From a virus (taxonomy: Duplodnaviria; Caudoviricetes): a stretch of DNA of 64,000 bases. Each line of letters opens with the position of its first letter. Within the stretch, counting starts at the first letter, position 1. The position numbers were made by a program, and so were the translations under genes. Where the stretch lies: positions 1 to 64,000 of IMG/VR virus record IMGVR_UViG_2933088407_000001. One strand, 5' to 3'. Below the pieces are notes generated by a model. That model saw only the letters and a program-made list of their open reading frames with translations. It had not been told where the DNA came from and searched no databases. Shown here one piece after another: positions 3,510-64,000 of this stretch.

Positions 3510-3929
3510 TCAGTTCTCCTTCGGGTTGTGGCGGTTGCGGAGGGCGGTGGTGAACGGGAGCCGGCCGGACGGCCTGGCCTGAGCAGGGACGGTGACAGGC
3601 CCTGGCTTCGGGACGGGTGTGCGCGGCGCGTCTTGGGTCGGGGACCACATGCGGATCCACACGCCGCCCGTCCGCCACACCACCTCCAGCCCCACACTGG
3701 TGATGTCCAGGGCGGGCCGCTGGTCCCCCGGCTGGTCCAGGGCGATCGTCGCCTCCGTCGCGAAGGAGCGGAGGGTCTTCTCGTCGCCGATGCGGATCGT
3801 CAGCATCGGGGTGCCGTCGGGGGCGGTGCTCCGCGTCCAGATCGGCAGGACGGCGGGCAGGCCACGGTTGGTGATGTGCAGCGCCAGCACCTTTTCAGCG
3901 TGGAGCCGGGCGTCATTCACGAGGGTCAT
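3510..3929 (-). CDS. hypothetical protein
   Basis: GAAAGG RBS; operon packing. Confidence 0.6.
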   Translation of the reverse strand: MTLVNDARLHAEKVLALHITNRGLPAVLPIWTRSTAPDGTPMLTIRIGDEKTLRSFATEATIALDQPGDQRPALDITSVGLEVVWRTGGVWIRMWSPTQDAPRTPVPKPGPVTVPAQARPSGRLPFTTALRNRHNPKEN

Positions 3930-5354: not shown

Positions 5355-5396
5355 GCTGCTCTTCTCTCTACTTGATCGATCGAATGGTTGAACTGC

Positions 5397-6482
5397 TCAG
5401 CTGGCCTTGACGAACCCGGCCTGCCCGTTGTGCCACAACGTCCGCGACGCCAAGCACGGCTGCTTCGACACCCGCTTCGGACGGATCGGCCCACCGAACC
5501 TCTTGTACGTCTCACCCGCAGCCACATCCGTGACGACCTTCCGGTTCACCCCAAGCTCCATCGCCTGCTCAAGGTCCGTCACGCCCTCCACGGCCCTCTC
5601 CCGGATACGCACCACCTGCGCCTCCGTCAGAATCGCCTGGTCCCGCTGAAACTCCCGAGGCACGGGCTCACCGCGCGACTCCAGCTCACTGCGGTAGCGA
5701 GCCACGAACCGGTACGTCGTCCCGTACGACTGACTCAACTCCCGGTCGATGTCCTTCCAGGTCAAGCCGCCCTGACAGAACCCGGTGATCTGCTCGGCCC
5801 TCTCTTCCTTCGAAAGCCGGCTGTGGACCTTCAGCGGCTGGTCGGGATCGTCACCCAAATACTTCTTGATGGCGTCAGACGCGGTCCGGGCCGAGACGCC
5901 CAACCGAGCGGCAACCTCCGCCAGCGACACACCCTCATACCGCCACTCCAGCACCTCTTCCATCCGCGCCAGCACCCGCTCGCCCTTGTTCCGCGGCTTC
6001 ACCTCAGCCACCGGAGCCGGCGCGGGCTCCACTTCAGTCACGGGCAGCAACTTCACCGCCAGGCGCAGCGTCATCCCCTCCACGCCCCCCCGCTCGGCGA
6101 GGTCCTTCACCGTCCGACCGGACACCGTCGACTCGAGGGCGAGCAGCCTGGCTTCCTCGGCGTCGAATTCCCCGTGCAGACGCACCTGCCGGTTCAACCA
6201 GTCACGCTGACGCCCTGTGAGGCCAGCACGAACGTTGCTGCGGCCGATGTCGGCCCCCCCTTCGGTGGCCCGCGCATCCCCCAAGCACTCGGCGAAGACC
6301 GGGCACTCCATGCACACCTCCCGAGCCTTCTCCTGGAGCTCCTTCGGGGCGTCGTCGTCCCACCACTGGGTGGGCCGGTTGTAGCAGGCGGAGCGGTCCT
6401 CCCAAGACGAGCGAAGGGTTTCTGCGCGTCCGGTGGCGCGGCGTGTCTCGTGGGGCGGCGTGTGCGGGGCGACGGTGGTCAT
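5397..6482 (-). CDS. WhiB-family Fe-S protein fused to several HTH modules
   Basis: W...SAC ... AREVCMECPVFAEC ... VRAGLTGRQR, then HTH-like segments such as VSLAEVAARLGVSARTA. Confidence 0.8.
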   Translation of the reverse strand: MTTVAPHTPPHETRRATGRAETLRSSWEDRSACYNRPTQWWDDDAPKELQEKAREVCMECPVFAECLGDARATEGGADIGRSNVRAGLTGRQRDWLNRQVRLHGEFDAEEARLLALESTVSGRTVKDLAERGGVEGMTLRLAVKLLPVTEVEPAPAPVAEVKPRNKGERVLARMEEVLEWRYEGVSLAEVAARLGVSARTASDAIKKYLGDDPDQPLKVHSRLSKEERAEQITGFCQGGLTWKDIDRELSQSYGTTYRFVARYRSELESRGEPVPREFQRDQAILTEAQVVRIRERAVEGVTDLEQAMELGVNRKVVTDVAAGETYKRFGGPIRPKRVSKQPCLASRTLWHNGQAGFVKAS

Positions 6483-7021
6483 TGCGGGGCTCCGTTCAGG
6501 GTGTAGAGGCGGATGAGGGCGCCGGGGGCGGAGAGGGCTTCGGGGTGTTCGCCGGGGTAGACCTTGCGGACGGCGAGTTCGGTGATCTGCGAGTCGTCGC
6601 GGATGACGCCGGATTCGGAGAGGGAGTCGAGGCAGGCGCGGGCGTGGTGGTCGATGTCTGAGCTGGCGCGGGTGATGGGCCAGGACTGCCGGCGCTTGGG
6701 GGCGGTCTTGGGTTTGGGGACGGTGATGGTGATGTCGACTGCGGTGGGGATGTTGGCGTAGAGACCGTGGTCGGGCTTGGGGATACGGCAGGTGAGGCAG
6801 ATGCCGCCCCAGTCGGTGTAGCCGTGGCAGCCGGTGGTGTCGCGGGTGGCGAGGATGATGGCTCGGCGCCAGGGCTTGAGCTTCTTTTCGTTGGTGTGGC
6901 GGGCTCCGCGGCCTTTGCCGTTGAAGCTGATGGCGCCTTGGCCGGCGGGTTCGCCGTGGATGACGATGGCTGCGCGGTGTTCCCAGGTGAGGGAGACGGG
7001 TTCGGGGGCGAGGGCGGTCAC
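6479..7021 (-). CDS. rusA: RusA-family Holliday junction resolvase
   Basis: GEPAGQG; DIDHHARACLDSL; IRDDSQI..L.VRK. Confidence 0.85.
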   Translation of the reverse strand: MTALAPEPVSLTWEHRAAIVIHGEPAGQGAISFNGKGRGARHTNEKKLKPWRRAIILATRDTTGCHGYTDWGGICLTCRIPKPDHGLYANIPTAVDITITVPKPKTAPKRRQSWPITRASSDIDHHARACLDSLSESGVIRDDSQITELAVRKVYPGEHPEALSAPGALIRLYTLNGAPQ

Positions 7022-7413
7022 CGGTTGGCCTCCAGCTGGGCGCGTGCGGCGTTGAGGGCGTCGTCCGTGGGGGTCCAGAAGCCGAGGCGGCCCTTGGCGG
7101 GGATGGGCTCGGGCAGGGCGCGGACGTCGTCGAGGGTCCAGTGGTAGGTGCCTTGGAAGGCCCACTCGGAGCAGCAGGGGTCGTTGCCGGTGTCGTAGTG
7201 GTAGCCGGTGATGCGGGCGACGGCGATGAAGGCTCCGTAGACGTCGAGGTTCGGGCCGTGGACGGTGGCGCTCTTGTCGGGCTCAGCGCCGGCGTGGATG
7301 AGGATGCGGGCCCCGCGGTACTTGTCGGGGAGCTTCCAGGTGCGGTTTTCGACGCGCTTCGACTGGTGGGCGATTGCGCCACTCCATGGCTGGCGGATGG
7401 TGAGGGCCTTCAT
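7018..7413 (-). CDS. ASCH-domain protein
   Basis: MKALTIRQPW..I...KRVENRTW ... ILIHAG ... PIPAKGRLGFW. Confidence 0.88.
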   Translation of the reverse strand: MKALTIRQPWSGAIAHQSKRVENRTWKLPDKYRGARILIHAGAEPDKSATVHGPNLDVYGAFIAVARITGYHYDTGNDPCCSEWAFQGTYHWTLDDVRALPEPIPAKGRLGFWTPTDDALNAARAQLEANR

Positions 7414-11402: not shown

Positions 11403-11995
11403 GGGCTCTCCACTCGGCAGCGTTGGGAAGGGAGGTCGGTCGGGCCTGGTGCTGCCGGAGACCGGGCCAGAGTGCCACTGTGACACCAAAGCGGGCCGAC
11501 AGGTTAGGTGGGGCTCAGTATTTGGCACGTCTGTGACTACGCAGGCGACGGATTCCGGCCGCCGACGGTCCGCGGGTATGAGAACGCCCCCGGCTGTGCG
11601 GTGGCCGGAGTTTTGCCGACAACAGCTACCGCAGCGCCGGGGGCGCGAGACCTCAGGGCGTGGCCCGTCAGTGACGGCAGTCTAGCCCGGATACGGTTCA
11701 GGCTGGTCGGGCCCATCCCCCCTTTTTCGTCCAGCGCACGTGCGGGGTGGCGGGGTAGGGGCCGCTCCCCTACCGCGGCCGCCCGCCCCACCACGACAGG
11801 CAGCACCACCCAAGCAACCCGGGCTCGCCGCCGACGTGAAGGGGCCGGTCGGCTTGTCACTCGGGTGGGGGACGGAGAAACCCCGGCAGTCTGGCGTGAT
11901 CTGGATGGGTGGGGCGACCGGCCCGAAACGCAGAAAACGGCCCCGCTCCCCCACCGTGGCGGTGAGAGAACGGGGCCGCTTGGCGATCGGGCCCG

Positions 11996-13198
11996 TCAGG
12001 AGGACTCGGCGCCCTCCTTGGTCAGCTCTCGCAGCAGCGCGTGATACGCCTCGGGCTGGTGCTCTCGCATAGCAGCCATCCAAACGCGGCCACCCTGGGC
12101 GAAGGCATCGCTGGACATCTTCAGACGCAGATGCTGAACGACGTAGAAGGGCTCGTCGTATGGCAGCTGTCGCGGTTGACTGCCCTTGCCCGGCGTCGGC
12201 GTGGCCGCTTCACCGGCCTCTTCCCCCAGCTCCTGGCCCCCTGTCTCCTCGTCGGCCGAAGGGTTGGGCTCTCCAGAGCCTTGGCCTGCATCGGATGAAG
12301 GTTGGGCACCGGGATGATCACGCCGTGATAGTTGGGCTGGCACGTCGACAGGGGAGGCCTCTCCGCCGTTGTCGTCGCTCCCGCCACTTTTTAGCGCGCT
12401 AAAACTGGAACCGTCCGAGGCGGCTGACTCCGCAGATGGCCCCTCTCCCTTACCTGCCACAGGCGACTTCGGGGCAGCCCCGCCCGGATTCCCCTTGCTC
12501 TTCTTGGCTTCTTGGCGAGCCTTCTCCAGCTGCTCGCGGCGCACGAGCTCGACCCTCCACTCTGCAACCTGCTCACCGGCTGGCAGGCCAGCAATGCGGT
12601 ACCCCTCGCGTTGGGGCATCTCGCCACTGCTCACCAGCATCTGAAGGTCGGGAACCAACTTCAGCATCTTGCGCTGCTGACTGACCCACCCCGCAGACTT
12701 CCCGTAGTGCGCAGCGACAGCGCCAACACCGTCAAGCTCTTGAACCATGGTGTCGATACCGAGTGCCCGCTCGATCGGGTCCAGGTCATCGCGGTCGTTG
12801 TTCTCGGAGAGGACCGCATCGAGGAAGTCGGCTCTGGAGCTGGCAACCTCTTCCCGGTGGACGACCCATAGCTTCTCGAGCCCAACTTCCTTGCTGGCTC
12901 GATAGCGGCGCTCCCCGTTCGCAATGACGTAGCTGGCGTCACCAACCAGCTCGGCCTCGTCTGGCCAGAGCTTGAGGTATGCCGTCCGGGAGACGACGAC
13001 CGCTGGTTGCAGCTGCCGCTTCTTCAGGACCTCGCCGAACTCGCAGAGCTGTTCCTTGTTCCCGAAGTTCCGGCGAGGGTTGAACCGAGTGGGCACCAGC
13101 TTGGTCAAGGGCATGTGCAGCAGCGTCAGGTCGCTGCTGCCTGGGACTTCCTCGACCTGGTCGCCGGCCAGTGAGGCGAGGCTTGTACGGCGACCCAT
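11996..13198 (-). CDS. parB: ParB-family partition protein
   Basis: NPRRNF, LQPAVV, IANGERRYRA, SENNDRDDL and an HTH; TAATG coupling to parA. Confidence 0.92.
   Translation of the reverse strand: MGRRTSLASLAGDQVEEVPGSSDLTLLHMPLTKLVPTRFNPRRNFGNKEQLCEFGEVLKKRQLQPAVVVSRTAYLKLWPDEAELVGDASYVIANGERRYRASKEVGLEKLWVVHREEVASSRADFLDAVLSENNDRDDLDPIERALGIDTMVQELDGVGAVAAHYGKSAGWVSQQRKMLKLVPDLQMLVSSGEMPQREGYRIAGLPAGEQVAEWRVELVRREQLEKARQEAKKSKGNPGGAAPKSPVAGKGEGPSAESAASDGSSFSALKSGGSDDNGGEASPVDVPAQLSRRDHPGAQPSSDAGQGSGEPNPSADEETGGQELGEEAGEAATPTPGKGSQPRQLPYDEPFYVVQHLRLKMSSDAFAQGGRVWMAAMREHQPEAYHALLRELTKEGAESS
12389..12404. promoter_or_regulatory. candidate parS site (inside parB)
   Basis: Perfect palindrome TTTTAGCGCGCTAAAA. 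Confidence 0.7.
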
Positions 13199-13863
13199 TA
13201 GGCGGCGCCTCCGTAGCCGAGCTCAATGGCGAGGCGGTAGAAGTCTTCTCGCGCCTCCATGGAGACCCGGTTCTTCGGGTACTGGGTAACGACTCGGCCG
13301 TCGACGGATGCGCGGGTGTGGACCTTGTAGCGACGGATCACGGTCCGGGCTACGGGCCATCCCTTGGCTTCGATGTACGCCTGGGTGTCCTCGAGGTCGG
13401 CTTTGCCGTCGCGCGGGTCCCAGTTGTTGATGACGACGCGGTAGGGCAGGCCGGTGGGCTTGATGACGCGTTCGACGGTTCGGGCGGTGGGGTCGAAGGC
13501 CAGGCCTTCAGGGGGCATGGGCACCAGTACGTCGTCGGCGTACTTGAGGGCTTCGAGGAGGAGGTTCTCGTCCTGGAGGCTGCCCGGGGTGTCGATGAAG
13601 ACGTGTTCCAAGCCGCGGTCGCTGTGGGCAAGGACGTCCGCGACGACTGCTGCGAGGTTCATCGTCTTGGTGGTCTTGCCGACGCCGCCCTTCTGGTTGG
13701 CGATGACGTGGACCTTGGCCTTCGTGGTGGCGAGGGCAGCGAGGTTCTCGGGAGTCTCGTGCTCCTGAGAGAAGTCGAACGGCAGTTGGTCGCCGATTCG
13801 GTTGGCCCACCAGACGGTGGAGGCCTGTGGGTCGATGGATACGACGTAGACGCTGGAAGGCAT
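13198..13863 (-). CDS. parA: ParA-family ATPase with rearranged motif order
   Basis: ANQKGGVGKTT, SIDPQAS, VFIDTPG, ADDVLVP; directly upstream of parB. Confidence 0.92.
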   Translation of the reverse strand: MPSSVYVVSIDPQASTVWWANRIGDQLPFDFSQEHETPENLAALATTKAKVHVIANQKGGVGKTTKTMNLAAVVADVLAHSDRGLEHVFIDTPGSLQDENLLLEALKYADDVLVPMPPEGLAFDPTARTVERVIKPTGLPYRVVINNWDPRDGKADLEDTQAYIEAKGWPVARTVIRRYKVHTRASVDGRVVTQYPKNRVSMEAREDFYRLAIELGYGGAA

Positions 13864-13966
13864 GTGCTCTCCGTGTGATTCCCGTGTTCCGGTACTACGG
13901 ACAGGGCGAATCATCGCAGATGCACTGGTGGAGATCTTCTTTGGCGGTCTCTCGGAGTGGCGGTCG

Positions 13967-13984
13967 GTTTTAGCGCGCTAAAAC
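13967..13984. promoter_or_regulatory. candidate parS site
   Basis: Perfect palindrome GTTTTAGCGCGCTAAAAC upstream of parA. Confidence 0.75.
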
Positions 13985-14085
13985 GGCGAGGGCTCGGGGA
14001 CAAGCTGAGGTTCGCAACCGGACATCGGAGACCTAGATGCGACTCCAATTGGAGTCATCTCGGTGCCTCCCTGCCCTCGGCGCTC

Positions 14086-14103
14086 GATTTAGCGCGCTAA
14101 ATC
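14086..14103. promoter_or_regulatory. candidate parS site
   Basis: Perfect palindrome GATTTAGCGCGCTAAATC. Confidence 0.75.
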
Positions 14104-14163
14104 ATGCCGTGATGTGCCGTACGGCCAGGCCCATGGCACGGGCTCGGCGGAGGCAGTCCGCCG

Positions 14164-14955
14164 TCATGCCGTGCGTTGGAAGGCGGTGCGGATTTCGGGG
14201 ATGCTGCCAGCTTCACGGTCGGCCTTGTGTTCGCGGGCAAGGCGGCGGATGAGCTGGTCTCGTTCGGCGCGGTTCTTCGCCTCGAGGTCGTCGGCGAACC
14301 ACACGGCTTCGGCGTGCTCGTCGTCAGGCTCGCGGTGCGTGCGCATGGCCGCGGTCTGCCGTTCGGCGGCGGCCCGGGTGCGCTGCTGGACATCGGTCTC
14401 GGTTCGCGCGGTTGCCTTGATGGCTTCGAAGGCGGCGCGGTAGCCAGGGGACGCGGTGTCGCGGGTCTTAACCGGGCCTAGGGCCACTGGCTCTTGGGTG
14501 AGCTCCGGGGCTGCCGGCTGGCCGCTGCTGAGGGGGCCGACGCGCTCGAGGCGGATCGCCCGTACAGGGGCGCCCTGCTTCTGGAGGCTGGTGACGAGCT
14601 GCTGGCCGAACATGCGGAGGAAGCTGGCGGCCGCGTCGGAGGACGGCTTGAGGGTGAGGCAGCCGCGGGTCTTGTCGTAGGAGGTGGGCTCCACCTTCCC
14701 GCAGAGTTCGGTGGGGCAGAGCTCGTTCCAGCGGTCGCGGAGGCTGCTGCCCTTGATGCCGGTCTGCCAGTCCTGGTCGGTGCTGAGGGTTTCGACGACG
14801 CTACCGAGCCCTACGGGATCCCGCCCGGTCCCGCGTCGGACTATCCGGGGGCGCTTGGGATTGTTGGACTGTTTGTTGGCGGGGATGGCCCAGGTGGACT
14901 TCTTGTAGGCGGCGAGGGCTTCGCGGCAGATGTCCTTGCCGGACGGCTCAGGCAT
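14164..14955 (-). CDS. DciA/DUF721-like protein with C-terminal extension
   Basis: RDPVGLGSVV..L....W ... LRDRWNEL ... LTLKPSSDAAASFLR...QLV..L resembles actinobacterial DUF721. Confidence 0.65.
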   Translation of the reverse strand: MPEPSGKDICREALAAYKKSTWAIPANKQSNNPKRPRIVRRGTGRDPVGLGSVVETLSTDQDWQTGIKGSSLRDRWNELCPTELCGKVEPTSYDKTRGCLTLKPSSDAAASFLRMFGQQLVTSLQKQGAPVRAIRLERVGPLSSGQPAAPELTQEPVALGPVKTRDTASPGYRAAFEAIKATARTETDVQQRTRAAAERQTAAMRTHREPDDEHAEAVWFADDLEAKNRAERDQLIRRLAREHKADREAGSIPEIRTAFQRTA

Positions 14956-16333
14956 GGGCGGTCTCCTGTTCGGCCTGGTTGCGGTTGACTGCGGCGTTCG
15001 TGTAGAGCCGGCGGGCCTGGTGTTCGCCGATGAGGTCGATGGCGAGGCCGATGACGCTGGGGTCCTTGGCGGCGGCGGCGCGCATGTCGATGACCTCGTC
15101 GCGGGTCAGGTCTTCGAGTGCGACGATCGGGCTGTCGGCGGAGTACTCGCCGATGCATTCCTCGTCGGTGGCCGGGCGCGGCTGGGTACGGCGGAAGGCC
15201 TCTGCGACGAGCTCCTGGACGTGGGCGCTGGATGGGCCGGGGCCGAAGGTCTCGTACTGGGTGGCGTCGTGTTCGGCGCGGGTGGCCTGCCGGGATTCCC
15301 GCCACGCATTCAGGCATTCCTGCCGGGCCTGCGGGGTGCGGAGGATGCGGGTGGCGCCCTTGAGGCGGCGGGCGAGGACGCCGGTGGGGCGGCGCATGCC
15401 GTCGGCGGGGCCGAGGGCGAACTGGTCGAGGTAGGCGCGGGTCTCGTCTGCGGACCATCCGGCGTCGGCGACTTCGCGGGCTACCCATGCGACGCGGGCG
15501 GTGTTGGTGTTGCCGAGCCACGGGATGGTCTGGATGAGTTCCTGGGCGAGCTGGTAGCGGCGGCCGACGCGGTTGAGGGCACGACGGGCCCGCTGCTTAG
15601 GGATCTGGGGAGTGGGGGAATCGCTGGTCCCGCTGGCGAGCTTGTTCTCAGGGGGATAGGTAGATGTACCCGCAGAGGAAGAGCCAGAGGTACCACCCTG
15701 CATTGGGGTGCAACGGCCCTTCCGCGTCCGGCGAGTGCGGCGGGTCTTGCGGGCGGCCTTCTTCGACAGCTTTCCGAGCTCGTCGCGGTGCTCGGGTGCG
15801 GCGCCGACGATGCGGCGGGCGGGGCCTTCGCCGACGGTCCGGATGCCGTGTGCCTCGTCGTAGGCGAAGGGGACGACCCGCTCGTACACGGATGCCTGCG
15901 CGCCGACGCCGGAGACCCGGGTGCCTTTGGAGCGGTACGCCAGCAGCCCGGCTTCGCGGAGCATGCCCAGGTGGTATTCGACGGTCCGCTCGCTGGCTTT
16001 GAGGAGCCGCATGAGGAAGGCGATGCCGGGCCGGCACTCGGTGAGGTGGGCGAGGGTGCGGGCGAGGCGGAGGGTGGTGTCGTTCATGCTGCGGGGGCCG
16101 TGAGCGCTGCTGGGGGTGTAGCGCTTGTGCTTGGGGTCGGCGGCCCAGTGGACGGCCATGAGCCAGTCGTGCCCGTCGGTGATGCGGCCGGTGGTGGTGG
16201 AGACCCACTGATGGCTGGGTGCGACACGGAGTGCCGCGGCCGGGCCCTGGTTGCACTGTCCGGGGAGGGAAATCCGGGGCGAATCGCCTGTTTCGGCATC
16301 GCTGAGCTGACAAGAGGTGTGAACGTCGTGCAC
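14948..16333 (-). CDS. putative replication initiator (HTH); start uncertain
   Basis: CRPGIAFLMRLLKASERTVEYHLGMLREAGLL winged HTH; position beside dciA-like and parAB. Confidence 0.65.
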   Translation of the reverse strand: MHDVHTSCQLSDAETGDSPRISLPGQCNQGPAAALRVAPSHQWVSTTTGRITDGHDWLMAVHWAADPKHKRYTPSSAHGPRSMNDTTLRLARTLAHLTECRPGIAFLMRLLKASERTVEYHLGMLREAGLLAYRSKGTRVSGVGAQASVYERVVPFAYDEAHGIRTVGEGPARRIVGAAPEHRDELGKLSKKAARKTRRTRRTRKGRCTPMQGGTSGSSSAGTSTYPPENKLASGTSDSPTPQIPKQRARRALNRVGRRYQLAQELIQTIPWLGNTNTARVAWVAREVADAGWSADETRAYLDQFALGPADGMRRPTGVLARRLKGATRILRTPQARQECLNAWRESRQATRAEHDATQYETFGPGPSSAHVQELVAEAFRRTQPRPATDEECIGEYSADSPIVALEDLTRDEVIDMRAAAAKDPSVIGLAIDLIGEHQARRLYTNAAVNRNQAEQETAHA

Positions 16334-16560
16334 TATGTACTCGCTTCCGTCATTGCGGGAGGGCACGCAAAAGCCCCCTCGTGTGCGGGGGTGGGTGTCG
16401 GAACCCAGTCGCTCTGGTAGGAGCCGGTCGCCAAACCGGATCTGTCCCGGAGCCTTAGCCCGGTCGCCAAACCGGGCCGTTGCAGAAGGCCGCGCACGGT
16501 GCGCCAACACCAGCGGCCAGCGGTAGAGGAAGCCCCGAGGGGCAAGACCTCCCGCTAGGT
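16334..16560 (-). promoter_or_regulatory. structured rep leader with three TTGGCG-loop hairpins and an attenuator-like stem
   Basis: Hairpins at 16424-16439, 16458-16477 and 16498-16511; CCCCC..GGGGGCTTTT before the start. Confidence 0.55.
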
Positions 16561-27212: not shown

Positions 27213-29138
27213 TCAGGCAGGCAGAATCTCACGCCACGCAGCCACAATCCGCCGCGACAGATAGACGTGCCCCGCGTCCGTCGGATGCACCGCATCCCCA
27301 CCCACGTAAGCCGCCGCGTTGCCGCTCGTGATGAACCCGCCATGCGTCGCCAGCAACGTCCCGGCCGCGTCGTACACCGCCCCCGTGATCGGCGAGACGA
27401 ACGGGAACCCGGCGTTCGCGGCCGCCGTGCGCAGCGTGGTGTCCGTGTTTGTGATGCTCGCTCCAGGGCTCGCCGTCGGAGACCAGCACCCCAGCACCAG
27501 TACCTGGCAGTTCGGCAGCCCCGTCTTGATGGCGGAGAACAGGCTCGCCGCGGCTGTGCCGATCGCGGACTGCGAGCCGCCGTTGTCGTTGTAGCCTCCC
27601 CACACCACCAGGCGGTCCGGTGCCCACGCCACCACATCCGCGGCCAGCCGGTCCGCGAACGTCGCGTAGCTGCCCGGGGTGATGTACCCCGTGCCGCCCC
27701 TCCCCTGGTCCCACGCATCCGTCGAACCGAGCAGCCGAGCCGCGCGGTGAAACCACGTGCCGGCCCCGGCGCCGGTGTTGTGCGCCGAGCCGTCGCTGAT
27801 GCTGTCGCCCAGCACCATCAGCCGGCCGCCCTGCAGCGGCACGCGCCACATCGTCGCCGACGGCGGGAGGTAGACCCCACCGAACGGCATCGTGTAGAAG
27901 TCCAGCCGGATCCGGCGCGGAGCAGCCGACCCCAGGTCAATCGTCAGCATGTGCCCGGAGCCTGCGGTCGTGCCGCCGCTGGACTGCGTCAGGTCTGTCA
28001 CCTTGCGGCCGTCGATGCTCAGCCGGTACATGCTCGCCGAGGAGATGTACTTGAATCTGACCTGCAGCGTCTGGGCGTCCGTGCCGAACTCCACCGACCA
28101 CACGCCCTGGCCCGAGCTGTAGGTGTTCGGGTACTTGCTGAGCGGCAGGACGTAGTTGGTGTCCGGGCTGCTCGCCCCGATCGCGAAGCTCCCGGCGCCG
28201 GCGTAGGCGTACGGCCCGGTCACGTCCGTACCCGCCAAAGCCACCAGCGGCGGGGCGTACTTGATGTAGCCAGTCGTCGGCGTCGTCGTCTGTGCCGTGC
28301 TGATAGTCGGCGCGCTCCCGGTGTACAGGGAGTCCGCCAGCGCGGGATCCGGAAGGTCCCGGCGCCGCCATGCCGTAGCGACCGGTCCCTGCGGACCGGT
28401 CGCACCTGTGGCTCCCGTCGGGCCAGCAGGCCCCTGTGCGCCCGTCGCTCCGGTCGCGCCTTGCGGGCCAGTTGCGCCAGTCGGGCCGGGATCCCCCTGC
28501 GGGCCCTGGCTTCCGGTCGCCCCCGTGGGTCCCGCCGGTCCTTGCTCCCCGGTGTCGCCCTTGGGGCCGGTCGCGCCGGTGGGTCCTGTATCGCCGGCGT
28601 CCCCCTTCAGGCCTTGCGCTCCCGCCGGTCCCGTGGGGCCGGGGTCTCCCTGGTCTCCCTTCGGGCCAGTGGTGCCGGCCGGGCCTTGAGGGCCTGTTGC
28701 TCCGGTCTCGCCCTGCGGTCCGGCGGGTCCACTTGCCCCGGCCGGTCCGGTCGGTCCGGCCGGGCCCGGCACGTAGACGATCGTGCCCGTGCCCAGTGGC
28801 GTGCCGGACAGTGCGATACGCAGGTCTCCCAGCCAGTACGGCCCGTCGGTCTCCGGGACCACGACGTACGCGGTGTTCGGGGTGCCATTCAGTGCGCGGC
28901 CCTCGGTTATCGCCCAGGCCGTGTCGCCGGCATCCGCGGTGATGGCCCCGTTCGGGGTGAGGTCCAGTTCCCAGGACCCGTCCTCGCCGGGCGTCACCGA
29001 GTCCTGCCCGGTGATCTCGCCACTCTCACTGGAGACGTAGCCCACCACCCGCTCCCCCGCCAGATCCACCAGCACCGCTGTGACCTGCACGCGCGTCGGG
29101 TCTGGCACATCAAGCAGCTTGCCCTGCACCACGGTCAT
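27213..29138 (-). CDS. collagen-repeat tail fibre/spike with C-terminal SGNH hydrolase
   Basis: Long Gly-X-Y run; GDSI, GGTG, GGYND and DAVHP blocks. Confidence 0.85.
28380..28770 (-). repeat. collagen-like Gly-X-Y coding repeat
   Basis: [10 protein letters not shown]...GATGPQGP. Confidence 0.9.
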
Positions 29139-32739: not shown

Positions 32740-34617
32740 TCAGGCGATGCGGGTGACGCGCATCCACGAGCCGACGGCCATGCGGTTGAAGGTGGTGGAC
32801 GACGTGGACTGTGCCCAACCGAGGGCGAGGGTTCCGGCGCTGGTGGTGGTGACGGTGCCCGTTTCGATGGCGTAGCAGACGTTGGTGTTCACGTTGCGGC
32901 GGCCGTAGGTGATGGTGGTGCCGAAGTTGTGTGCGCCGCTCCTCATGGTGATGCCGTCGCCGTTGTTGTTGCCCGCGGTGGCTTCAGTCGCGGCCGAGGA
33001 CGGGCCCATGGCGCCCTTGAGGCCGGTAGCGCCGGTGGGCACCAGCCACTCCGTCACCGTGAGAGCGAACGTACTGCCGCCGGTGAACAGGTGGAACTCC
33101 ACGATGTAGGTGGCGTTCGCGAGGAGCGACACCGTCAGGTGTGGGTCTGCGGTCCGGCTGGTGGTGCTCGTGCGGTCGGTGTTCGCCGGCTTGCTGACCA
33201 GGTACGGGGTGTTCTGGGCCATGACGCTGCCCGTGACGGAGAGGCCGGACGAGGTGAACGTGTGATCGCTGCCGTTAGCGTTTACGTTCACGTAGTCGCC
33301 GGTGACGTAGACGGAGCTGTGCTTGCCGGTACCGGTGCCGTCCTGGACGTACATGTTCATGTACGAGGCGCCAGCGGTGGAAGAGCCGGAGGCGGCGTCG
33401 ATCGCGGCGAAACCGATCTCGCTCGTGGCCGTTGGGGCGTTCGTTGCCACGGCGAAGCGGCCGGGGAAGGATCCGGCTTTCGGTGATCCGAGGGAGATGA
33501 CGGCTTGGCTGTAGGCGCCGCTGGAGTCCTGGGCGACGATCGGCGCCCCGAGAGCTGTGGTGGGCTGCGCCGGGACACCCACGGTGGGGCCGGCGTTGAG
33601 CCCGGCGGGGAAGAGCTCACCGGTGACGCCGGAGTACAGGAGCATCGTCGGCCGGTTCACCATGCCGGCGGGCGGGGTGGGGGTGACCACGACGCGGGAG
33701 CCGGTGGTGTTGGTTTGGAGGACGCCGCCGGTGACGGTGGCGCCGGTGATGTCGGTGCCGTTGATGGTGCCGCCGGTGATGGTCTTGCCGGTGATGGCGT
33801 CGGCCTTGATGGCGGTGGCGTCGACGCTGCCTGCGGCGAGCTTGGCGGTGGTGACGGCGTTGGCGTCGAGCTTGTCGGTGGTGATGGCGAGGGCTGCCAC
33901 CTTCGCTGCGGTGACGGCCTCGGCGGCGAGCTTGTCGGTAAGGATGGCGCCGGCGGCTATCTGTCCGGCGAGGATCGCCCCGGCCACGATCTTCTGCGTG
34001 GTGACGGCGTCGTCGGTGATTTCGGTGGTGCCGACGGCCCCGGCGGCGATTTTCGCGGCGGTCACGGCGTCGGCCGCGAGCTTCGCCTCGGTGACGATGC
34101 CGTCGAGGATGTCGGACGCGACGACCGGTGTCGGCCCGTACGGGCCGGCCTCGGTGGAGGGGGTTGAGGCGGCGCCGGACGTGTTGCGGGCTAGCAGTTG
34201 TACGTACACCGGGTCGTCCGTCACTACGACGACGGTGGCGCCCTGCGCCGTCTCGATCGTGGACTGTAGCGTCGCCGCGGTCGCCGTGAAGCCGCTGCTG
34301 GTGGAGGCGTGGACCTCGATCCGGGCCCAGTCCAGGGGGATCACCGCGGCGTCGGCGAACTGGCCGTCCCACGAAACGGTGACGCCGCCCAGCACGGAGG
34401 CGACGACCGGGGTGGACGGGGCCGGGGGCGGGGGTCCGTTGACGACCTGGATGCCGGAGGTGCCGTCGGCCTGCTGCCCGACGATCGCGCGCAGGCCACC
34501 AAAGTCGTCGCGGGCCACGAGGGCGGTTCCGTCGAGGGAGGCTGACGAGAGGCGAGAGGCGCGTTCGACCTTCTTGATGCGGGCTTCCAGGATGGCGAGC
34601 TGGGCTCCGATGTCCAT
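32740..34617 (-). CDS. minor tail / tail fibre protein
   Basis: Fn3-like segment; repeated AVTAAKIAAG units; TGATG coupling. Confidence 0.8.
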   Translation of the reverse strand: MDIGAQLAILEARIKKVERASRLSSASLDGTALVARDDFGGLRAIVGQQADGTSGIQVVNGPPPPAPSTPVVASVLGGVTVSWDGQFADAAVIPLDWARIEVHASTSSGFTATAATLQSTIETAQGATVVVVTDDPVYVQLLARNTSGAASTPSTEAGPYGPTPVVASDILDGIVTEAKLAADAVTAAKIAAGAVGTTEITDDAVTTQKIVAGAILAGQIAAGAILTDKLAAEAVTAAKVAALAITTDKLDANAVTTAKLAAGSVDATAIKADAITGKTITGGTINGTDITGATVTGGVLQTNTTGSRVVVTPTPPAGMVNRPTMLLYSGVTGELFPAGLNAGPTVGVPAQPTTALGAPIVAQDSSGAYSQAVISLGSPKAGSFPGRFAVATNAPTATSEIGFAAIDAASGSSTAGASYMNMYVQDGTGTGKHSSVYVTGDYVNVNANGSDHTFTSSGLSVTGSVMAQNTPYLVSKPANTDRTSTTSRTADPHLTVSLLANATYIVEFHLFTGGSTFALTVTEWLVPTGATGLKGAMGPSSAATEATAGNNNGDGITMRSGAHNFGTTITYGRRNVNTNVCYAIETGTVTTTSAGTLALGWAQSTSSTTFNRMAVGSWMRVTRIA

Positions 34618-35711
34618 CACATGCCTCCGTAGACGTAGGAGCCGGCGGGCTTGAGCTGGAGGGTGGCCTGCTCGCCGCCTTGGGCGGTGGGCTTGACGGT
34701 CCAACTGACGATGCGGCACCAGCCCGCGAATGAGGTCCAGGGGTTGTTGACGCGGACGCGGACGTCGTCGCCGACCTGCCACGAGCCGATGGGGGCCGCG
34801 GGGTGGTCCCGCACGGTGATTTCCTGTACGGAGCCGAGGGTCTGGCGCCATTTCGATTCGGCGGCGGCGCGCTGGGCCAGTAGGTCGGTGCCGTTGACGT
34901 CGGGCAGGTCGAGGACTGTTTCGAGGCGGAGGCGGCCGTTGCGGATGGCGTTGATCGACCGCTTCTTCGCGGAGCCGTCTCCGGTGCCGACGGCGACGAC
35001 GACCTGGGCGTACTCGTCGCCGGCCTGCGGTACCTCGGGGTCCTCGAGGATGTTGACGCCGGTCGCGAAGCTGATGTCGGTCCGGCGCGCTCCGAGGCGT
35101 GGCCAGCCGAGCCGGACCCTGCGCACGGGCGCGGTACGGCCGGTGTTCCAGGCGACGTCGCAGGCGTAGTCGGGGGTCGCGTCCCCGGAGACGAGGTCAT
35201 CGATGGCGTCGCCCAGCACCGGGCTCTCCCACCAGGAGAACTTCAGCGGCTCGGCGGTGGTGCCGACCTTCGCGGTGCTGGTGGTGGCGTCGACGGTGAC
35301 GCCAAGGTTGCCGTCGGCGATGGACTGCGCGTAGGCCCAGACGTCGCGGATGACGGTGCAGGGGTCGGCGTTGGCGTAGGGGCCGCGGCCACCGAGGTTG
35401 CCGTCCAGGTCGTGGCGGTGCTGGAGGTAGGAGGACCAGCCGGCCGCCTCGATGGCGTATTCAGAGCCTTGCGGGCGGGCGTCCCAGACGAGGCCGCCCC
35501 AGCGCAGCAGCCCGTCGCGCTCGACGTAGATGAGGGTGGTGCCTGGGTCGGTGAGGGTGGTGTTGGAGGCGAGGAGGTGCGGGGCGAGCGTGCCGGATAG
35601 GGAGCCGGGCCCGTTCAGTTCGGAGCCGTACTCCAGGTCGGTGATCGGGAGGGCTTTGGACAGCCACTGGCCGGTGAGGGCGTGCTGGGTCAGTACCCGG
35701 TAGCCGGCCAT
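34617..35711 (-). CDS. minor tail protein (hub/Tal-like)
   Basis: ELNGPGSLSG..VERDG..WGG; GSWQVGDDVRV; position in the tail module. Confidence 0.8.
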   Translation of the reverse strand: MAGYRVLTQHALTGQWLSKALPITDLEYGSELNGPGSLSGTLAPHLLASNTTLTDPGTTLIYVERDGLLRWGGLVWDARPQGSEYAIEAAGWSSYLQHRHDLDGNLGGRGPYANADPCTVIRDVWAYAQSIADGNLGVTVDATTSTAKVGTTAEPLKFSWWESPVLGDAIDDLVSGDATPDYACDVAWNTGRTAPVRRVRLGWPRLGARRTDISFATGVNILEDPEVPQAGDEYAQVVVAVGTGDGSAKKRSINAIRNGRLRLETVLDLPDVNGTDLLAQRAAAESKWRQTLGSVQEITVRDHPAAPIGSWQVGDDVRVRVNNPWTSFAGWCRIVSWTVKPTAQGGEQATLQLKPAGSYVYGGM

Positions 35712-36661: not shown

Positions 36662-37564
36662 CTAGAGGGCGGTGTAGGCGTCGCGCCAGGTGATGGTGAG
36701 CCGGGCTGTGTTGGTCGGGTCGACGGCGGTCCACCGCATCTCGGACGTGCCGGGGGGCAGGGAGAACAGGTCGAGACGGGAGGCGGCGGCCAGGTACGTT
36801 TCGGCGTTGCCGCCGTTCTCCCGCACCACCGACAGTCGCCCCGGCCGGGTGTCCATCTCCACCCACTGGCCCGCGGTGAGGGCGAGCGTCGGCAGGGCCA
36901 GGACGCGGCCCGAGGTGGCGTGAGTGATGGTGACGTTGTTGCACGGCCCCTGGATGCGCAGGACGGGCCAGGTGTCGCGGGTGCCGGCGTTGGTGACCCA
37001 CCCGGGGCGTTCCGCGGTGGTGGTGGCGGAGGTGACGAAGATGGGTGCGACGACGGGGGCGGTGAATCCGCCGCCGGTCATCCAGCCGAGGGGGATGTCG
37101 AGGGTCTGCTCGGTGTCGCCGTACCAGGTGGGGTCGGTCGCTTCGAATGCCATGTCGAGTTCGATGCGGCCGTGGATGGCGGTGGCCATCTCCGGGGCGC
37201 AGCGGCGCAGTCGGCCGTTGGCGCGTCGGGTGGTGCCGCCGGGCCGGCGGACGCGTAGCGGCATCGTGGCGCCGCCGACGAGCCGGATGGCGGGATCATC
37301 GGCGGCGGCCTGGAGCTGCGCGAGGAGGGCTTCGCAGGCGGGGCCGTTGCCGGGGATGGTGATGCCGCCGTCGAACTCGATGGTGCGGGCCGTGTAGTAG
37401 TCCGGGCCCGGGTAGGTGCCGTCAGCGGACGGCCGGTCGACGTCGGAGTCGCGGGTTCCGGGCCAGCCGAGGCCGGTGACTTCCTTGAAGCGGATCGGGG
37501 TGCCGGTGCCCATGAGGACACCGCCGAGGTCCCACTGCCCCTCGTTCAGGTCAACGTCCGGCAC
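36662..37564 (-). CDS. distal tail protein (Dit-like)
   Basis: First gene after the tape measure; FEATDPTWYG, NAG...WP, LPPG. Confidence 0.8.
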   Translation of the reverse strand: MPDVDLNEGQWDLGGVLMGTGTPIRFKEVTGLGWPGTRDSDVDRPSADGTYPGPDYYTARTIEFDGGITIPGNGPACEALLAQLQAAADDPAIRLVGGATMPLRVRRPGGTTRRANGRLRRCAPEMATAIHGRIELDMAFEATDPTWYGDTEQTLDIPLGWMTGGGFTAPVVAPIFVTSATTTAERPGWVTNAGTRDTWPVLRIQGPCNNVTITHATSGRVLALPTLALTAGQWVEMDTRPGRLSVVRENGGNAETYLAAASRLDLFSLPPGTSEMRWTAVDPTNTARLTITWRDAYTAL

Positions 37565-40500
37565 GGGCTGCCACCCCTCCCCTGCGTGCGCGCCGCATCT
37601 GCCGGCCGACCTGGTGGCCGATGTCGTAGGCGGATGCGCCGGTCCTGGTCACGGGCACGTTCACGGTGGTGGGGCCTTCCTGGCTGATGACGACGGCACG
37701 TCCGGCGTTCGCGTCGGTCAGGCCGACGCCGAAGCGCTGGGCGACGTCGCCGAGGACTGCGGTGGCCGAGGCCCGCTTGTTGGCGCCGAGGGGGATGTAC
37801 GCCTCTCCGCCGGTGGAGGGCTCGGCGAACGTGACGGCGCCGGCGCGGGTTCCGTAGATGCCGGGGCGGATGCCGCCGTTGGCGTATGACAGGCCCTTCT
37901 GTGCGCGGGCCAGGTCGGCGAGGAATTTCGCAGAGCGGGAACCGAGGCTGCTCTTGATCTGACTGCTGGCTTTGGTGGCGACGGTGACGATGTCGTCTTC
38001 GCCCAGCCCGGTGGCGGAGGCCACGTCGTGGATGCCGGTCTTGGAGCTCTTGACCGCGGCGATGATCTGCACCAGTTGGGCGATCTGGTCGGAGGACAGT
38101 GCGTTGTTTGCCGCGGTGGCGGCCTTGTTTGCCGAAGCTGCCTTGCTCTTGTCCTTGGCTGCGGCGGCGGCCAGAGCCTCGGCGTCCTGATCGTTCTGCG
38201 ACGCGAGGCGCGTGGCGAGAGCCCCGTAGCCGCTGGCAGCGAGCCTGGTGAGGTTCGCCTGGAACGCGGCCTGGTCTTTCACCGCGGCGTTGAGCTGCGA
38301 GGTGTACTCGCCCAGGGACGCCTTGGCCGAGGCTGCGAGGTTCCGCAGCTGAGAGGCCATGTCGTTGATGTACTTCGACGAACCGTGGGCCATTTTCTTC
38401 GTCAGCGCGATGCCTTCGTCGCCCATGTCGGCGAGTGCGGCAGCGACGTCCTGGCCGGCGCGGGATGCGACCGTGGCGAGGTCCTTGCGCCAGGCGTCGA
38501 GAGCGTTGTTGGAAGCGCGCAGCTTGCTCGTGAAGACCGAGAGGCTGAAGTTGCCGTTCTTGTCGTTTGAGGCGGAGATCAGTCCAGACAGGGTGTACTT
38601 CTGGGCTGCGCCGCCGAATCCGGAGTAGGTGAAGTCCAGGCCGCCGCCGTCAGCGAACCGGGTAACGGAGCCGTCGGCGTTCCACGCGATGCCCCGGCCG
38701 CCCAGGCGGCGCACGGTCTCCTCGGCGATGGCGCGGGAGCGGCGCCGCTTGCCAACGGCGAGGGGAATGTAGGCCTCGCCGCCGGTCTCGTCTTCGGCCC
38801 ACACGCGCCATTCGCCGGCGCGGGCGATCTGCGCGGTGTGCTGCTCGCGCCGCATGCCACCGCCGGCGTAGTGCGCGACCTGGACGGATCCGTCGGCCTG
38901 GTAGCCGCTGGCGTACGGGCCTGGGTTGGCCTTCCTGACGATCGTGTCGATGAACGTTTTCTTGTAGATGCTGATGGTCGCTGAGCTGCCGTGGACACTG
39001 TCGATGGCACCCTGGATTGCGGCGACCTGGGATTTCGGGGTGCCGGTCGGCACGCTGACAACGACCGTTTTCCCGTCCGTCGACTGGATTTTGAATCCGA
39101 GGAGTTCCAGCTGGCGGCGCCCCTCTGCGGTGGGGACGTTCATCGTGATGGTCTTGCCGTGTTGCTTTTGGACCGCTGCCTTGAGGTTTTCCAGATCGCG
39201 GAGTGCCCCGGCGGTCTTCGCGCTCATGTTGAGGCTCTTGCCGCCGGGTACGGCCTGCATCTGCTTGAGCAGGTTGGCGAGGTCTGCTTTTGCCTGCCCG
39301 GTCTTCGCGGTGACCTTGTATTCGCGGGTTCCCGGGATGAGCTTGACGGTGTAGCCGAGCTCCTCGAGCTTCTTCTTCGCGTCGTCGGACAGGGTGTCGA
39401 CCTTGACCGTCTTGGACTTCGGGACCTTCGCGAACTCCGCTTGGACGGCGAGGAGCTCGGCGAGGGTGGAGTCGACGCCCTTGGTTTGGAGCAGGATGGA
39501 GACCTGGCCGGGGATGAGGCCCATCGCGTCGGCGACGCCCTGCGCCTGCTTGCTGGACAGGCCGTAGCCTTCGCCGAGCTTGATGGCCGCGTCGCGGGCC
39601 TTTTGCATCTCCGCCTGTGAGGCCTTCAAGCTCTCGGGAAGGCCCTTGCCCTGCGACTGCGCGAAGTCGTAGGCCGCGATTGCGGCGTCCGCTGACCCGT
39701 CGGCGATGTTGTTGAAGGTGTTGAACAGCGACTGGCCGTTCTTCGTGGTGGTGTCGATCTGCCCGTTGGCTTTGACGAGGGCCTTGCCCCAGCCGTCGCT
39801 CTTGCTGATGCCGTTGGTCATTGCGTCGTTGGCCTGGGTGATGGCCTCGTTTACGCGTGCCTGGGCGGCTTGGAGGCTGATGCTGCCGCCGGAGAGCAGG
39901 TCGAGGCTGGCGCGCAGGGCGCGGGTGCGGGAGTCGGCGTCGCCGGTCTTGTCGGCGAGAGCCGCAACCGAGTCCTTGAGTCGCTGGTAGGCGGAGACGC
40001 CGTCTTCGGATCCCTTCTGCGCGGCAGCCAGTTCTTTCGCAGACCGCGCCGCTCCGGACATCTCCCCCTTCATGCTGCCCAGGGCGGCGGCCGCGTCCTT
40101 CGCGGACTTGCCGACCGGGTCGATGTCGGTGACGACGCCGCCGCCGCTGGAGACGGTTACCTTCGTGTGCGCTTCAGCGACTCCCTCCAGTTGCTTTTGG
40201 AGTTCGCCGAGGCTCTTGCCTTCGCCCAGGTAGGAGCTTGTGAGGCTCTTGAGGGAGACGCCGGAGCGGCGCATCACGTCGACGAGTTTCTGCCGGCCGT
40301 CGCCGACCTTCATGTCCTGGATCTGTTGAGCGGCGACGGCGCGGACGTTGTCATCGACAGCGCCTTTGGACTCGCGCAGAGCCTGGGAGAGGTTCGCGAT
40401 CCGCTGGTCGTGCTCTGCGGCGGCTTGGGCTGCTTTCTGCTGTGCGCTGGCGAGGAAGCCCAGGGCAACGGTTGCGCCAGCGATGGCTACGCCCCACGGG

Positions 40501-50329: not shown

Positions 50330-52279
50330 TCATCGGGTATTCCCCCTATCCTGCCCGGGTTTCCCGTTTCCGCTGGTCACGGCTTCCGCCTGGGTCCCGT
50401 CGGCGGCTGCCTGATCGTCAGCTGCGGCCTGGTCTCCGGGGAGCGCCGGGAGGACGACGGCTGGGGCGACGGGGTCGGGGTTGAGGTCGAGGCCGAGGTA
50501 GTCGCCGACGGCGCCGCTGTCGCCGGTGGCATCGGCCAGGGCCTTGGCGGCGTCGAACTGCCTGGACTGGATGCGCTCGATCTCCTCGGCAGCGTCGTCG
50601 ATCGGGAATCCAGCGTCCTCGAGCATGCGCACACCCGTCTCCAGGGAGAGGACGCCCTTCTCGACGCCGGTGGTGACCTGCTCGAGGACCGCAGTCTTGT
50701 CGGTGGGGGTGTAGGCGCCGAAGGTGAGCTTCGCGGGCTGCGGTTGGATGCCGGCCCAGTCGGGGTGCTGTCCCGCCAGGAAGAGGCGCTGCACCATCTT
50801 CAGGAGCAGGGCGTACTTGTGGTCGCGGGCCAGGCGCATGGCGGCGACGAGGGAGTCCAGCGGTCCGAGGGATAGCTGGAGGGCGTAGCCGGACGGGACC
50901 TTGGAGGGGTCCATGGTGCCGAGGGCGACGGCGGGGATGCGGGCGACGTTTGCGGTGCGGTCGTGGAGGTCGTGGACGTGGTTGCGGAGTTCGGCGAGGT
51001 TGCGGCTGGTGTCGACGGCGACCATGCCGCCGCCTTCCCCCAGCGTGTAGACGATTCCTGGGCCGACCTCCTCGAGGACGCCGCTGCCGGTGGCGGCCTT
51101 GCCCCAGATGCCGATGGGCGGGGATCCGGTGGTGGCGGAGGCGCGGGCCGAGTCGGTGTCGGAGCCGGCGAGCTCGTCGAGGACCTGGAGGACCTTGGCG
51201 AGGGAGGACTGGCCCCAGTGCTCCTCCGCCGGGGGCACCGTGTTGGGGAGGTGGATGACCGGGATGAAGTCCAGCAGGAGGTCGAGGTGGTCGAGGACTT
51301 CGCCGTCGGAGCGGGTCGCGAACGTCGCGGCGCCCAGCGGAAGACTGTCGACGTCGCAGGGGCCCTTGATGTCGCCCAGGTTCCAGGTGGCGTCGGTCAG
51401 GTAGCAGGTGGCAAAGGATGGCTGGTCGTTCCAGGCGTACATGCGGGAGATGGCACCGCTGCCGGGGTCGAACATATCGCCGGGGCCAAGCGGCGGGGGC
51501 GGCTGCTCGCCTTCGACGGCGTCCTCGGGCAGTTCGACGGGGAGCGGGGCGCGCACGGCCCGGCCGGCCTGGTCGACGCCGGATGCGGTGGCGGGGCGGA
51601 TCCAGTCCAGCTCGTAGGTGATGCGCCGGATCCGGGCCTTGAGGCCGCGCTTGGGGTCCTCGGGCAGTTCCCAGGCGAAGTGGACACGGGTGGGGAACTC
51701 GCCACCGTCGTCGTCCTCGCCGATCACCGGGAAGTAGAAGCCCGGGTCGTGGACGCGGAGGGTGGGCCGGTTCTTGCCGCGGTCCCACGCGAGGCGGTAG
51801 ACGCCGTCGCCGAGGGAGACCGCCTTGCGTTCGGCCTGCTGAAGGCGCATCGGGAGCTGCTCGGCCTCGGACCAGTCGCGCAGCAGCTCCTGCACCTTCG
51901 CGGCCATCGCGGTGTCCGCGTCGGCGGCGTCGGAACCTTCGTGCTCAGCTCCGGGCACGGTGATGGTCTGCTCGCGCCCCAGGACGTGGGCCATGACAGT
52001 GTCGATCAGCATGCTGGGGTCGCCGAACTCCCGGCGGTCCCGCGCGTGGATGTCCCCGCCGACTGCGGCGAGCTCGGCGGCCTGGTTCTGGTCGTACGCA
52101 GCGAGGAGCTTGTAGGCGGCGAGGCGCTTCTCGTCTTCGGCGGGCACCCACATGGCGTGGGCCTCGGTGAAGGCGCGGCGGTTGGGCATGCCGTTCGTGT
52201 CGCTGCTGTAGATCGGCTTGTAGTTCAGCCATGACCAGGCATGGATGACGACCTCGCGGCTTCGCCCGAGCAGGCCCAC
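50330..52279 (-). CDS. portal protein
   Basis: ERKAVSLGDG, FIPVIHLPN...WGQS, PSGYAL; position. Confidence 0.85.
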   Translation of the reverse strand: MGLLGRSREVVIHAWSWLNYKPIYSSDTNGMPNRRAFTEAHAMWVPAEDEKRLAAYKLLAAYDQNQAAELAAVGGDIHARDRREFGDPSMLIDTVMAHVLGREQTITVPGAEHEGSDAADADTAMAAKVQELLRDWSEAEQLPMRLQQAERKAVSLGDGVYRLAWDRGKNRPTLRVHDPGFYFPVIGEDDDGGEFPTRVHFAWELPEDPKRGLKARIRRITYELDWIRPATASGVDQAGRAVRAPLPVELPEDAVEGEQPPPPLGPGDMFDPGSGAISRMYAWNDQPSFATCYLTDATWNLGDIKGPCDVDSLPLGAATFATRSDGEVLDHLDLLLDFIPVIHLPNTVPPAEEHWGQSSLAKVLQVLDELAGSDTDSARASATTGSPPIGIWGKAATGSGVLEEVGPGIVYTLGEGGGMVAVDTSRNLAELRNHVHDLHDRTANVARIPAVALGTMDPSKVPSGYALQLSLGPLDSLVAAMRLARDHKYALLLKMVQRLFLAGQHPDWAGIQPQPAKLTFGAYTPTDKTAVLEQVTTGVEKGVLSLETGVRMLEDAGFPIDDAAEEIERIQSRQFDAAKALADATGDSGAVGDYLGLDLNPDPVAPAVVLPALPGDQAAADDQAAADGTQAEAVTSGNGKPGQDRGNTR

Positions 52280-63999: not shown

Positions 64000-64000
64000 C

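Follow-up and report, generated by a model that had tools for sequence, protein, structure and literature searches.

The locus described here raises the question of whether a ParA partition ATPase can keep its fold and its function when the nucleotide-binding module that normally opens the chain lies in its interior. P-loop nucleoside triphosphatases (NTPases) are amongst the oldest and most studied of protein folds, and their Walker-A-first order is treated as fixed. In canonical ParA proteins the order is Walker A, A′, Walker B, with the segment that carries A′ sitting behind the Walker-A helix; calling the three corresponding modules A, B and C, this is the order A-B-C. The stretch analysed here, referred to below as the window, comprises the 64,000 nucleotides from position 1 to position 64,000 of the IMG/VR virus record IMGVR_UViG_2933088407_000001. 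In P0001, the 221-residue ParA encoded on its minus strand by the open reading frame (ORF) at 13198-13863, the modules are found in the order B-A-C. This order is confirmed as real, and it would seem most likely that P0001 is functional as a partition ATPase of the ParF/Soj type.

In the translation of the gene VYVVSIDPQAS lies at residues 5-15, KVHVIANQKGGVGKTT at residues 50-65 and HVFIDTPG at residues 87-94, right behind the Walker-A helix. Module B reads VYVVS-IDPQAS-TVWWANR onward and module C opens around HVFIDTPGS. The sequence motifs of the ParA/MinD/Soj proteins are present, namely a deviant Walker A with the signature lysine, an A′ motif (S-I-D11-P12-Q13) and a Walker B (H-V-F-I-D91-T-P-G), although the linear order, A′ (residue 11), Walker A (58), Walker B (91), is not that of these proteins. 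Two Pfam families are matched above their gathering cut-offs, AAA_31 with 38.5 bits (cut-off 27) and CbiA with 34.1 bits (cut-off 25.4). A phmmer search against PDB sequences gave the canonical ParA 3cwq as the best match (E 1.2e-10), with residues 53-75 of P0001 aligned to 4-26, 7-36 to 33-60 (weakly, at -0.9 bits when taken alone) and 86-200 to 69-181. Against P0281, a canonical A-B-C ParA of 222 residues from Streptomyces thermolineatus, residues 3-44 align to 38-78 with 63% identity (B), 49-82 to 2-35 with 81% (A) and 86-221 to 85-220 with 74% (C), values comparable to those among many B-A-C members. The block order proposed in the initial annotation is borne out by both comparisons, and when the segments are aligned separately all three map to canonical ParA in swapped order. 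Its view that two adjacent segments had been exchanged, with no circular permutation of the whole chain, also holds from the module order in the alignments, as does its statement that the gene is intact. The gene is present in a single copy and is the sole ParA homologue in the 88,119-b record, where it matches only itself at 100%. An alternative in-frame ATG at 13914, which would add 17 residues, was rejected as the start codon; the homologues start at the methionine equivalent to 13863.

Homologues with the same order are abundant. A word-indexed protein search gave 1247 matches at E <= 0.001 among 8000 scored candidates, and in 117 of 120 gathered ParA proteins DPQ lies ahead of Walker A, the other three being truncated or degenerate. 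Module order was called by cutting P0001 into B, A and C and searching each piece with phmmer against 353 gathered ParA-like proteins. The order was A-B-C in 145 of these, B-A-C in 126 and B-C-A in 7; a further 34 were A-C, with B too divergent for scoring, 30 were fragments with C only, and the rest were C-A (2), B-C (3), B-A (3), A-B (2) or none (1). With each species represented by a single genome, 80 related loci were retained, with B-A-C in 53, A-B-C in 26 and one cut at a contig end. The B-A-C loci come from Streptomyces (36), Kitasatospora (10), Embleya (2), Actinomadura (2), Actinocorallia (1), Actinoallomurus (1) and an unclassified source (1). The A-B-C loci are from Micromonospora (10), Actinoplanes (4), Salinispora (2), Pseudonocardia (2) and unclassified sources (4), with single loci from Streptomyces, Angustibacter, Dactylosporangium and Planosporangium. 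A match is found in 275 plasmid records, and annotated complete plasmids, pCQ3 included, bear a B-A-C gene. The matches listed from IMG/VR include 9 full-length loci, of which 8, on contigs of 71-93 kb, have the B-A-C order; the metagenome scan gave two full-length loci among the matches listed, both A-B-C.

It is hardly credible that the order should be an artefact of assembly or gene calling, or that the N-terminal DPQ should resemble A′ by chance, and this explanation is already refuted. Chance could appeal to the weak single match of residues 7-36 to 3cwq, but over 41 residues module B shares 63% identity with the corresponding module of a canonical relative. The misassembly envisaged in the initial annotation is countered by the 53 independent genome assemblies and the complete plasmids that have B-A-C, and by an independent Logan contig of 27,942 b that covers 12900-14200 of the window with 0 differences. 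Short soil-metagenome contigs of relatives span both module junctions. In P0061, a B-A-C homologue of 283 residues from Streptomyces sparsogenes, the P-loop is degenerate (KGGGGRTT) and DPQ is replaced by DPL; this copy may be in decay.

When 1.84 billion representatives were searched exhaustively with phmmer, 690 matched at E <= 0.001, 177 of them at <= 1e-10 and 39 at <= 1e-30. Only P0120 and P0138, both B-A-C, were full-length representatives matched in a single stretch, most of the others matching in three stretches because of their canonical order. The canonical ParAs of actinomycete plasmids (P0281 and those of Micromonospora, Actinoplanes and Pseudonocardia) are like P0001 in their modules, their length class and the parB downstream (26 of 26 A-B-C loci), and differ from it in module order only.

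A third order is found in P0122, P0127, P0140, P0180, P0274, P0277, P0285 and the longer P0273, in which module A lies at the extreme C-terminus. DPQ and KGGxGKTT are invariant in these B-C-A proteins, which are 33-77% identical to P0274 and whose C part is up to 72% identical to that of P0001. They belong to the same family as P0001 and share with it the displacement of A from the N-terminus, but theirs is a true circular permutation, unlike the segment swap of P0001. All come from metagenome gene calls (JGI, ENA, Logan), on contigs of up to 63.7 kb; none of the 80 genome loci is B-C-A (query P0274), and none was obtained from viral scans with P0274, P0140 and P0127. An AlphaFold2 model of P0274 (mean predicted local distance difference test (pLDDT) 94.6, predicted template-modelling score (pTM) 0.91) has the same list of elements as that of P0001 described below, with strand 195-199 and helix 208-224 last, and when superposed on ParF and 3cwq its B and C parts deviate by 2.4-3.4 Å over 181-185 columns.

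The residues expected of a working enzyme are conserved throughout the rearranged family. In an alignment of 124 B-A-C proteins with 46-91% identity to P0001, residues Gln57, Lys58, Gly59, Gly60, Gly62, Lys63, Thr64, Thr65, Asp91, Pro93 and Gly94 are invariant, and the A′ residues Asp11, Pro12 and Gln13 are kept in at least 90% of the sequences. The ratio of nonsynonymous to synonymous substitution (dN/dS), calculated by the Nei-Gojobori method for the three pairwise comparisons among the genes of the window, pCQ3 and a Streptomyces scopuliridis plasmid, is 0.12-0.24 for the whole of parA. By module it is 0.10-0.17 for B and 0.13-0.21 for C; the displaced N-terminal segment is therefore at least as constrained as the rest. 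It might be proposed that partition function was lost after the rearrangement, leaving an ATPase-dead, ParA-like adaptor or regulator. Such a protein might well miss the NCBIfam equivalog cut-off, as P0001 does, but the nucleotide-binding and catalytic residues would hardly then be invariant or nearly so across the 124 sequences. In addition, P0001 is the only ParA homologue that the element has, parB always lies behind the gene (53 of 53 B-A-C loci) and the gene is present on many large low-copy plasmids. Loss of the ATPase is thus very unlikely.

The AlphaFold2 model of P0001, built on the alignment of 124 B-A-C sequences, is a single compact domain with a mean pLDDT of 92.9, a pTM of 0.91 and no segment below 50. 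Module B is predicted to form strand 5-9, helix 15-26, strand 30-33 and helix 38-46, and module A strand 50-54 and helix 63-77. In module C these are followed by strand 87-91, helix 96-106, strand 111-116, helix 120-137, strand 141-145 and helices 155-167, 180-188 and 199-215. A canonical DPQ strand behind Walker A, which would have spoken against the swap, is not seen in the model, where helix 63-77 runs through a loop into the Walker-B strand 87-91 with no cryptic β2 between them. Given the high pTM, the strand of residues 5-9 would probably occupy the β2 slot next to the Walker-B strand. The sheet of SIMIBI-class proteins is made of parallel strands, and the topological argument that parallel strands permit such rewiring is plausible. 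Searched with Foldseek, the model matches ParF/TP228 ParA (5u1g, 4e07, 4e03), 3cwq, Soj, MipZ and MinD with a probability of 1.00.

A fold unlike that of the canonical monomer might also be envisaged, with the B segment swapped between the subunits of a dimer or hanging as a flexible appendage from a core that lacks β2. The sequential TM-score of only 0.50-0.66 would fit this, but the pTM of 0.91 and the pLDDT of 88-93 over residues 1-47 place the segment confidently against its own chain. Module B also retains the catalytic DPQ motif and is the module on which purifying selection is strongest (dN/dS 0.10-0.17), and the B and C parts of the B-C-A model superpose on ParF with 2.4-3.2 Å over 181-185 columns. 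Such a fold is accordingly judged unlikely.

The gene is coupled to parB, as had been stated: the start of parB overlaps the stop of parA in TAATG (13196-13200), the final base of the parA stop doubling as the first base of parB. A ParB homologue is directly downstream of parA in all 80 related loci (53/53 B-A-C, 26/26 A-B-C). The candidate parS sites suggested around parA are present as three copies of a 14-bp palindromic core, TTTAGCGCGCTAAA, starting at 12390, 13969 and 14088, against 0.00 expected in the window. All three are at the par locus and none lies elsewhere in the 88,119-b record; each extends to a perfect 16-bp palindrome (Table 1). Among 143 loci the exact palindrome of the window was present in its own locus only. 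In eight related IMG/VR loci (L002-L008, L010) the 16-bp palindrome is another one, GTATACCGCGGTATAC, which is present 2-5 times per locus and arranged as in the window, upstream of parA and once or twice within parB (locus positions ~3700-3900 and 5390-5500). That the palindromes differ between relatives suggests centromere specificities that have diverged. A scan of 11800-14300 for promoter and terminator consensus sequences gave 0 and 0, which is uninformative for a high-GC actinomycete.

Table 1. Features of the par locus and of its surroundings, in window coordinates.
Feature	Position	Strand	Description
parA	13198..13863	-	221 codons + stop; small ParF-like ParA, module order B-A-C
Module B, residues 1-47	13723..13863	-	strand 5-9, A′ motif D11-P12-Q13, helix 15-26, strand 30-33, helix 38-46
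Module A, residues 48-84	13612..13722	-	strand 50-54, deviant Walker A K58-G-G-V-G-K63-T-T, helix 63-77, short linker
Module C, residues 85-221	13201..13611	-	Walker B strand 87-91 (D91-T-P-G) and remaining ParA core
Shine-Dalgarno-like GGAGAG	13867..13872	-	3 nt ahead of ATG at 13863, read from sequence
parB	11996..13198	-	400 aa; ParB_N 32.8 bits (cut-off 26.3), HTH_ParB 24.9 bits (cut-off 22.6); GERRYRA motif
Candidate parS TTTTAGCGCGCTAAAA	12389..12404	.	16-bp perfect palindrome, within parB coding region
Candidate parS TTTTAGCGCGCTAAAA	13968..13983	.	16-bp perfect palindrome, 105 nt upstream of parA
Candidate parS ATTTAGCGCGCTAAAT	14087..14102	.	16-bp perfect palindrome, 224 nt upstream of parA
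DciA-domain gene	14164-14955	-	PF05258, 38.1 bits; directly upstream of parA
520-aa protein	14948-16510	-	weak helix-turn-helix matches only; upstream of DciA-domain gene
Phage structural genes	27213-29138, 32740-34851, 37551-42755, 50330-52279	all -	tape measure, portal, tail-fibre-like proteins

Because of the conserved residues, the purifying selection, the confidently predicted fold and the conserved parB partner, P0001 is most likely a working, ParF/Soj-like partition ATPase of a parABS system, with module A relocated between B and C and the three-dimensional core of ParA predicted to be kept; we put the probability of this at about 0.85. Relative to the canonical chain, the β1/P-loop/α1 module (A) would have left the N-terminus for a place behind the β2/A′ segment (B) and ahead of the Walker-B strand (C). 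The protein would form an ATP-dependent dimer through the signature lysine, Lys58, with hydrolysis proceeding through Asp11 of the relocated A′ motif and Asp91 of Walker B, and its stimulation would come from ParB seated on the three 16-bp palindromes.

Several observations weigh against this assignment. The cut-off of the NCBIfam equivalog NF041546 (ParA_partition) is 180 bits, and P0001, matched in 3 stretches, obtains 72, the best stretch aligning residues 79-201 to positions 71-194 of the 203 in the profile; P0001 is under-scored because the profile aligns to it as three out-of-order pieces. The Foldseek scores against ParF and the other structures named above are low, with a TMq of 0.44-0.66 (0.66 for 4e07) and a root-mean-square deviation of ~5 Å over 208-221 columns for the best matches; such values are to be expected when a sequential aligner meets a permuted chain, but they do not prove that the N-terminal strand is in the β2 slot. 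Module A has the highest dN/dS of the three, 0.22-0.56. A duplication intermediate would be expected to carry module A or module B twice; none of the 353 proteins does, and no relic of an A module was detected within 450 nt upstream of the 53 B-A-C genes (best E 0.3). Finally, a biochemical or genetic test of P0001 or of any B-A-C relative was not found in the literature.

Amongst known systems P0001 is closest in kind to ParF of TP228 and the other small ParF-like (type Ib) ParAs, including that of Synechocystis (3cwq), which are likewise ~205-220 residues long without an N-terminal helix-turn-helix (HTH) domain. They share with it the deviant Walker A with its signature lysine, a DPQ-type A′ and a D-T-P-G Walker B; their order, however, is A-B-C and that of P0001 is B-A-C. 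The partner of ParF in TP228 is ParG, a ribbon-helix-helix protein, unlike that of P0001, which is a ParB_N/HTH ParB with GERRYRA. Outside the ParA proteins, the circularly permuted GTPases, whose motifs run G4-G5-G1-G2-G3, are to our knowledge the only textbook exception to the fixed Walker-A-first order of P-loop NTPases. These belong to the TRAFAC class and have undergone circular permutation of the whole domain. P0001 is a SIMIBI-class ATPase in which adjacent internal segments are swapped, and no single circular permutation yields B-A-C. For the YlqF/RbgA, YjeQ/RsgA and Lsg1 family of these GTPases a natural permuted P-loop NTPase core is described in PMC1262696.

The history of the rearrangement was approached with trees from a concatenated A+B+C alignment (75 rows, 223 columns). 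In a quick tree 17 B-A-C rows form one group, with a Shimodaira-Hasegawa-like approximate likelihood ratio test (SH-aLRT) support of 95, nested among the A-B-C rows; P0138 lies apart from these 17, and the B-C-A rows are split. A tree from module C only, with 134 rows, was poorly resolved. Repeated origins of the rearranged orders were considered and dropped, because approximately unbiased (AU) tests do not reject single clades (p 0.78 for B-A-C, 0.88 for B-C-A and 0.62 for both together) and the constrained trees have a higher likelihood than the quick free tree. Judged from these sequences A-B-C is the ancestral order, since B-A-C is nested among canonical rows and A-B-C is the order in all other ParA/MinD proteins. 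B-C-A is obtainable from it by tandem gene duplication and trimming; B-A-C is not. For how B-A-C arose we infer, as the likeliest route, a partial tandem duplication to A-B-A-B-C, after which the leading A and the later B would have been lost; neither an intermediate nor a relic of this was found in the proteins and upstream regions searched.

At 13655-13708, the part of the gene that codes for Walker A, three further contigs of the run that yielded the Logan contig, with depths of 163-1038, match the window over only these 45-50 nt; presumably they are other ParA-like genes in the same sample. Recombination at such shared Walker-A coding DNA may have helped the module to relocate.

A full-text literature search of main texts found no description of a permuted ParA. 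In the available part of a survey preprint on ParA (10.64898/2026.10.19.760177, October 2026) 'permut' concerns FHA domains only. Within one tight family of plasmid ParAs the nucleotide-binding module is thus borne at three positions in the chain, whilst the remaining sequence stays 60-80% identical and, wherever the DNA context was obtained, the same ParB partner is retained. We lean, by a little, towards the view that the A-B-C, B-A-C and B-C-A proteins are all active partition ATPases with the same three-dimensional core, that β1/P-loop/α1 would then be a relocatable cassette, and that B-A-C would be the first natural non-circular permutation in that core. The family offers a natural experiment on the weight of chain connectivity in ParA folding, dimerisation and ATPase switching. 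It also offers one on how permutations arise and on how profile-based annotation misses or under-scores them (72 against 180 bits). Rules of motif order and hidden Markov model cut-offs will mis-score a ParA type frequent among the plasmids and phage-plasmids of Streptomyces. Rewiring of this kind in an ancient enzyme fold is rarely met with in nature.

The gene resides on what is, from its gene content, a circular Streptomyces phage-plasmid of ~88 kb of the pZL12/pCQ3 type. The record, at 88,119 b, has direct terminal repeats, and it is because of these and of the phage structural genes that the element is taken as a phage-plasmid; amongst the latter the tape measure protein has 1734 residues (phrog_10780, E 9.4e-121) and the portal matches phrog_64. 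The circular plasmid pCQ3 (85,518 bp) shares the order HTH, DUF721 (DciA), ParA, ParB, and its ParA is 80.7% identical to P0001. The HTH and DciA genes are probably a replication module of the phage-plasmid; their homologues lie upstream of parA in 6-7 of the 53 B-A-C loci and in 0 of the 26 A-B-C loci. In PMC4487206 both pSLE1 and pZL12 appear as plasmid-phages that are syntenic and carry ParA/ParB, and in the available sections of that account ParA is taken as ordinary and motif order is unmentioned. Elsewhere in the window, an ORF of 661 codons at 5397-7382 (minus strand) has matches to WhiB-like regulators over residues 324-383 and a C-terminal match to an endonuclease (phrog_6156, E 9.6e-22).

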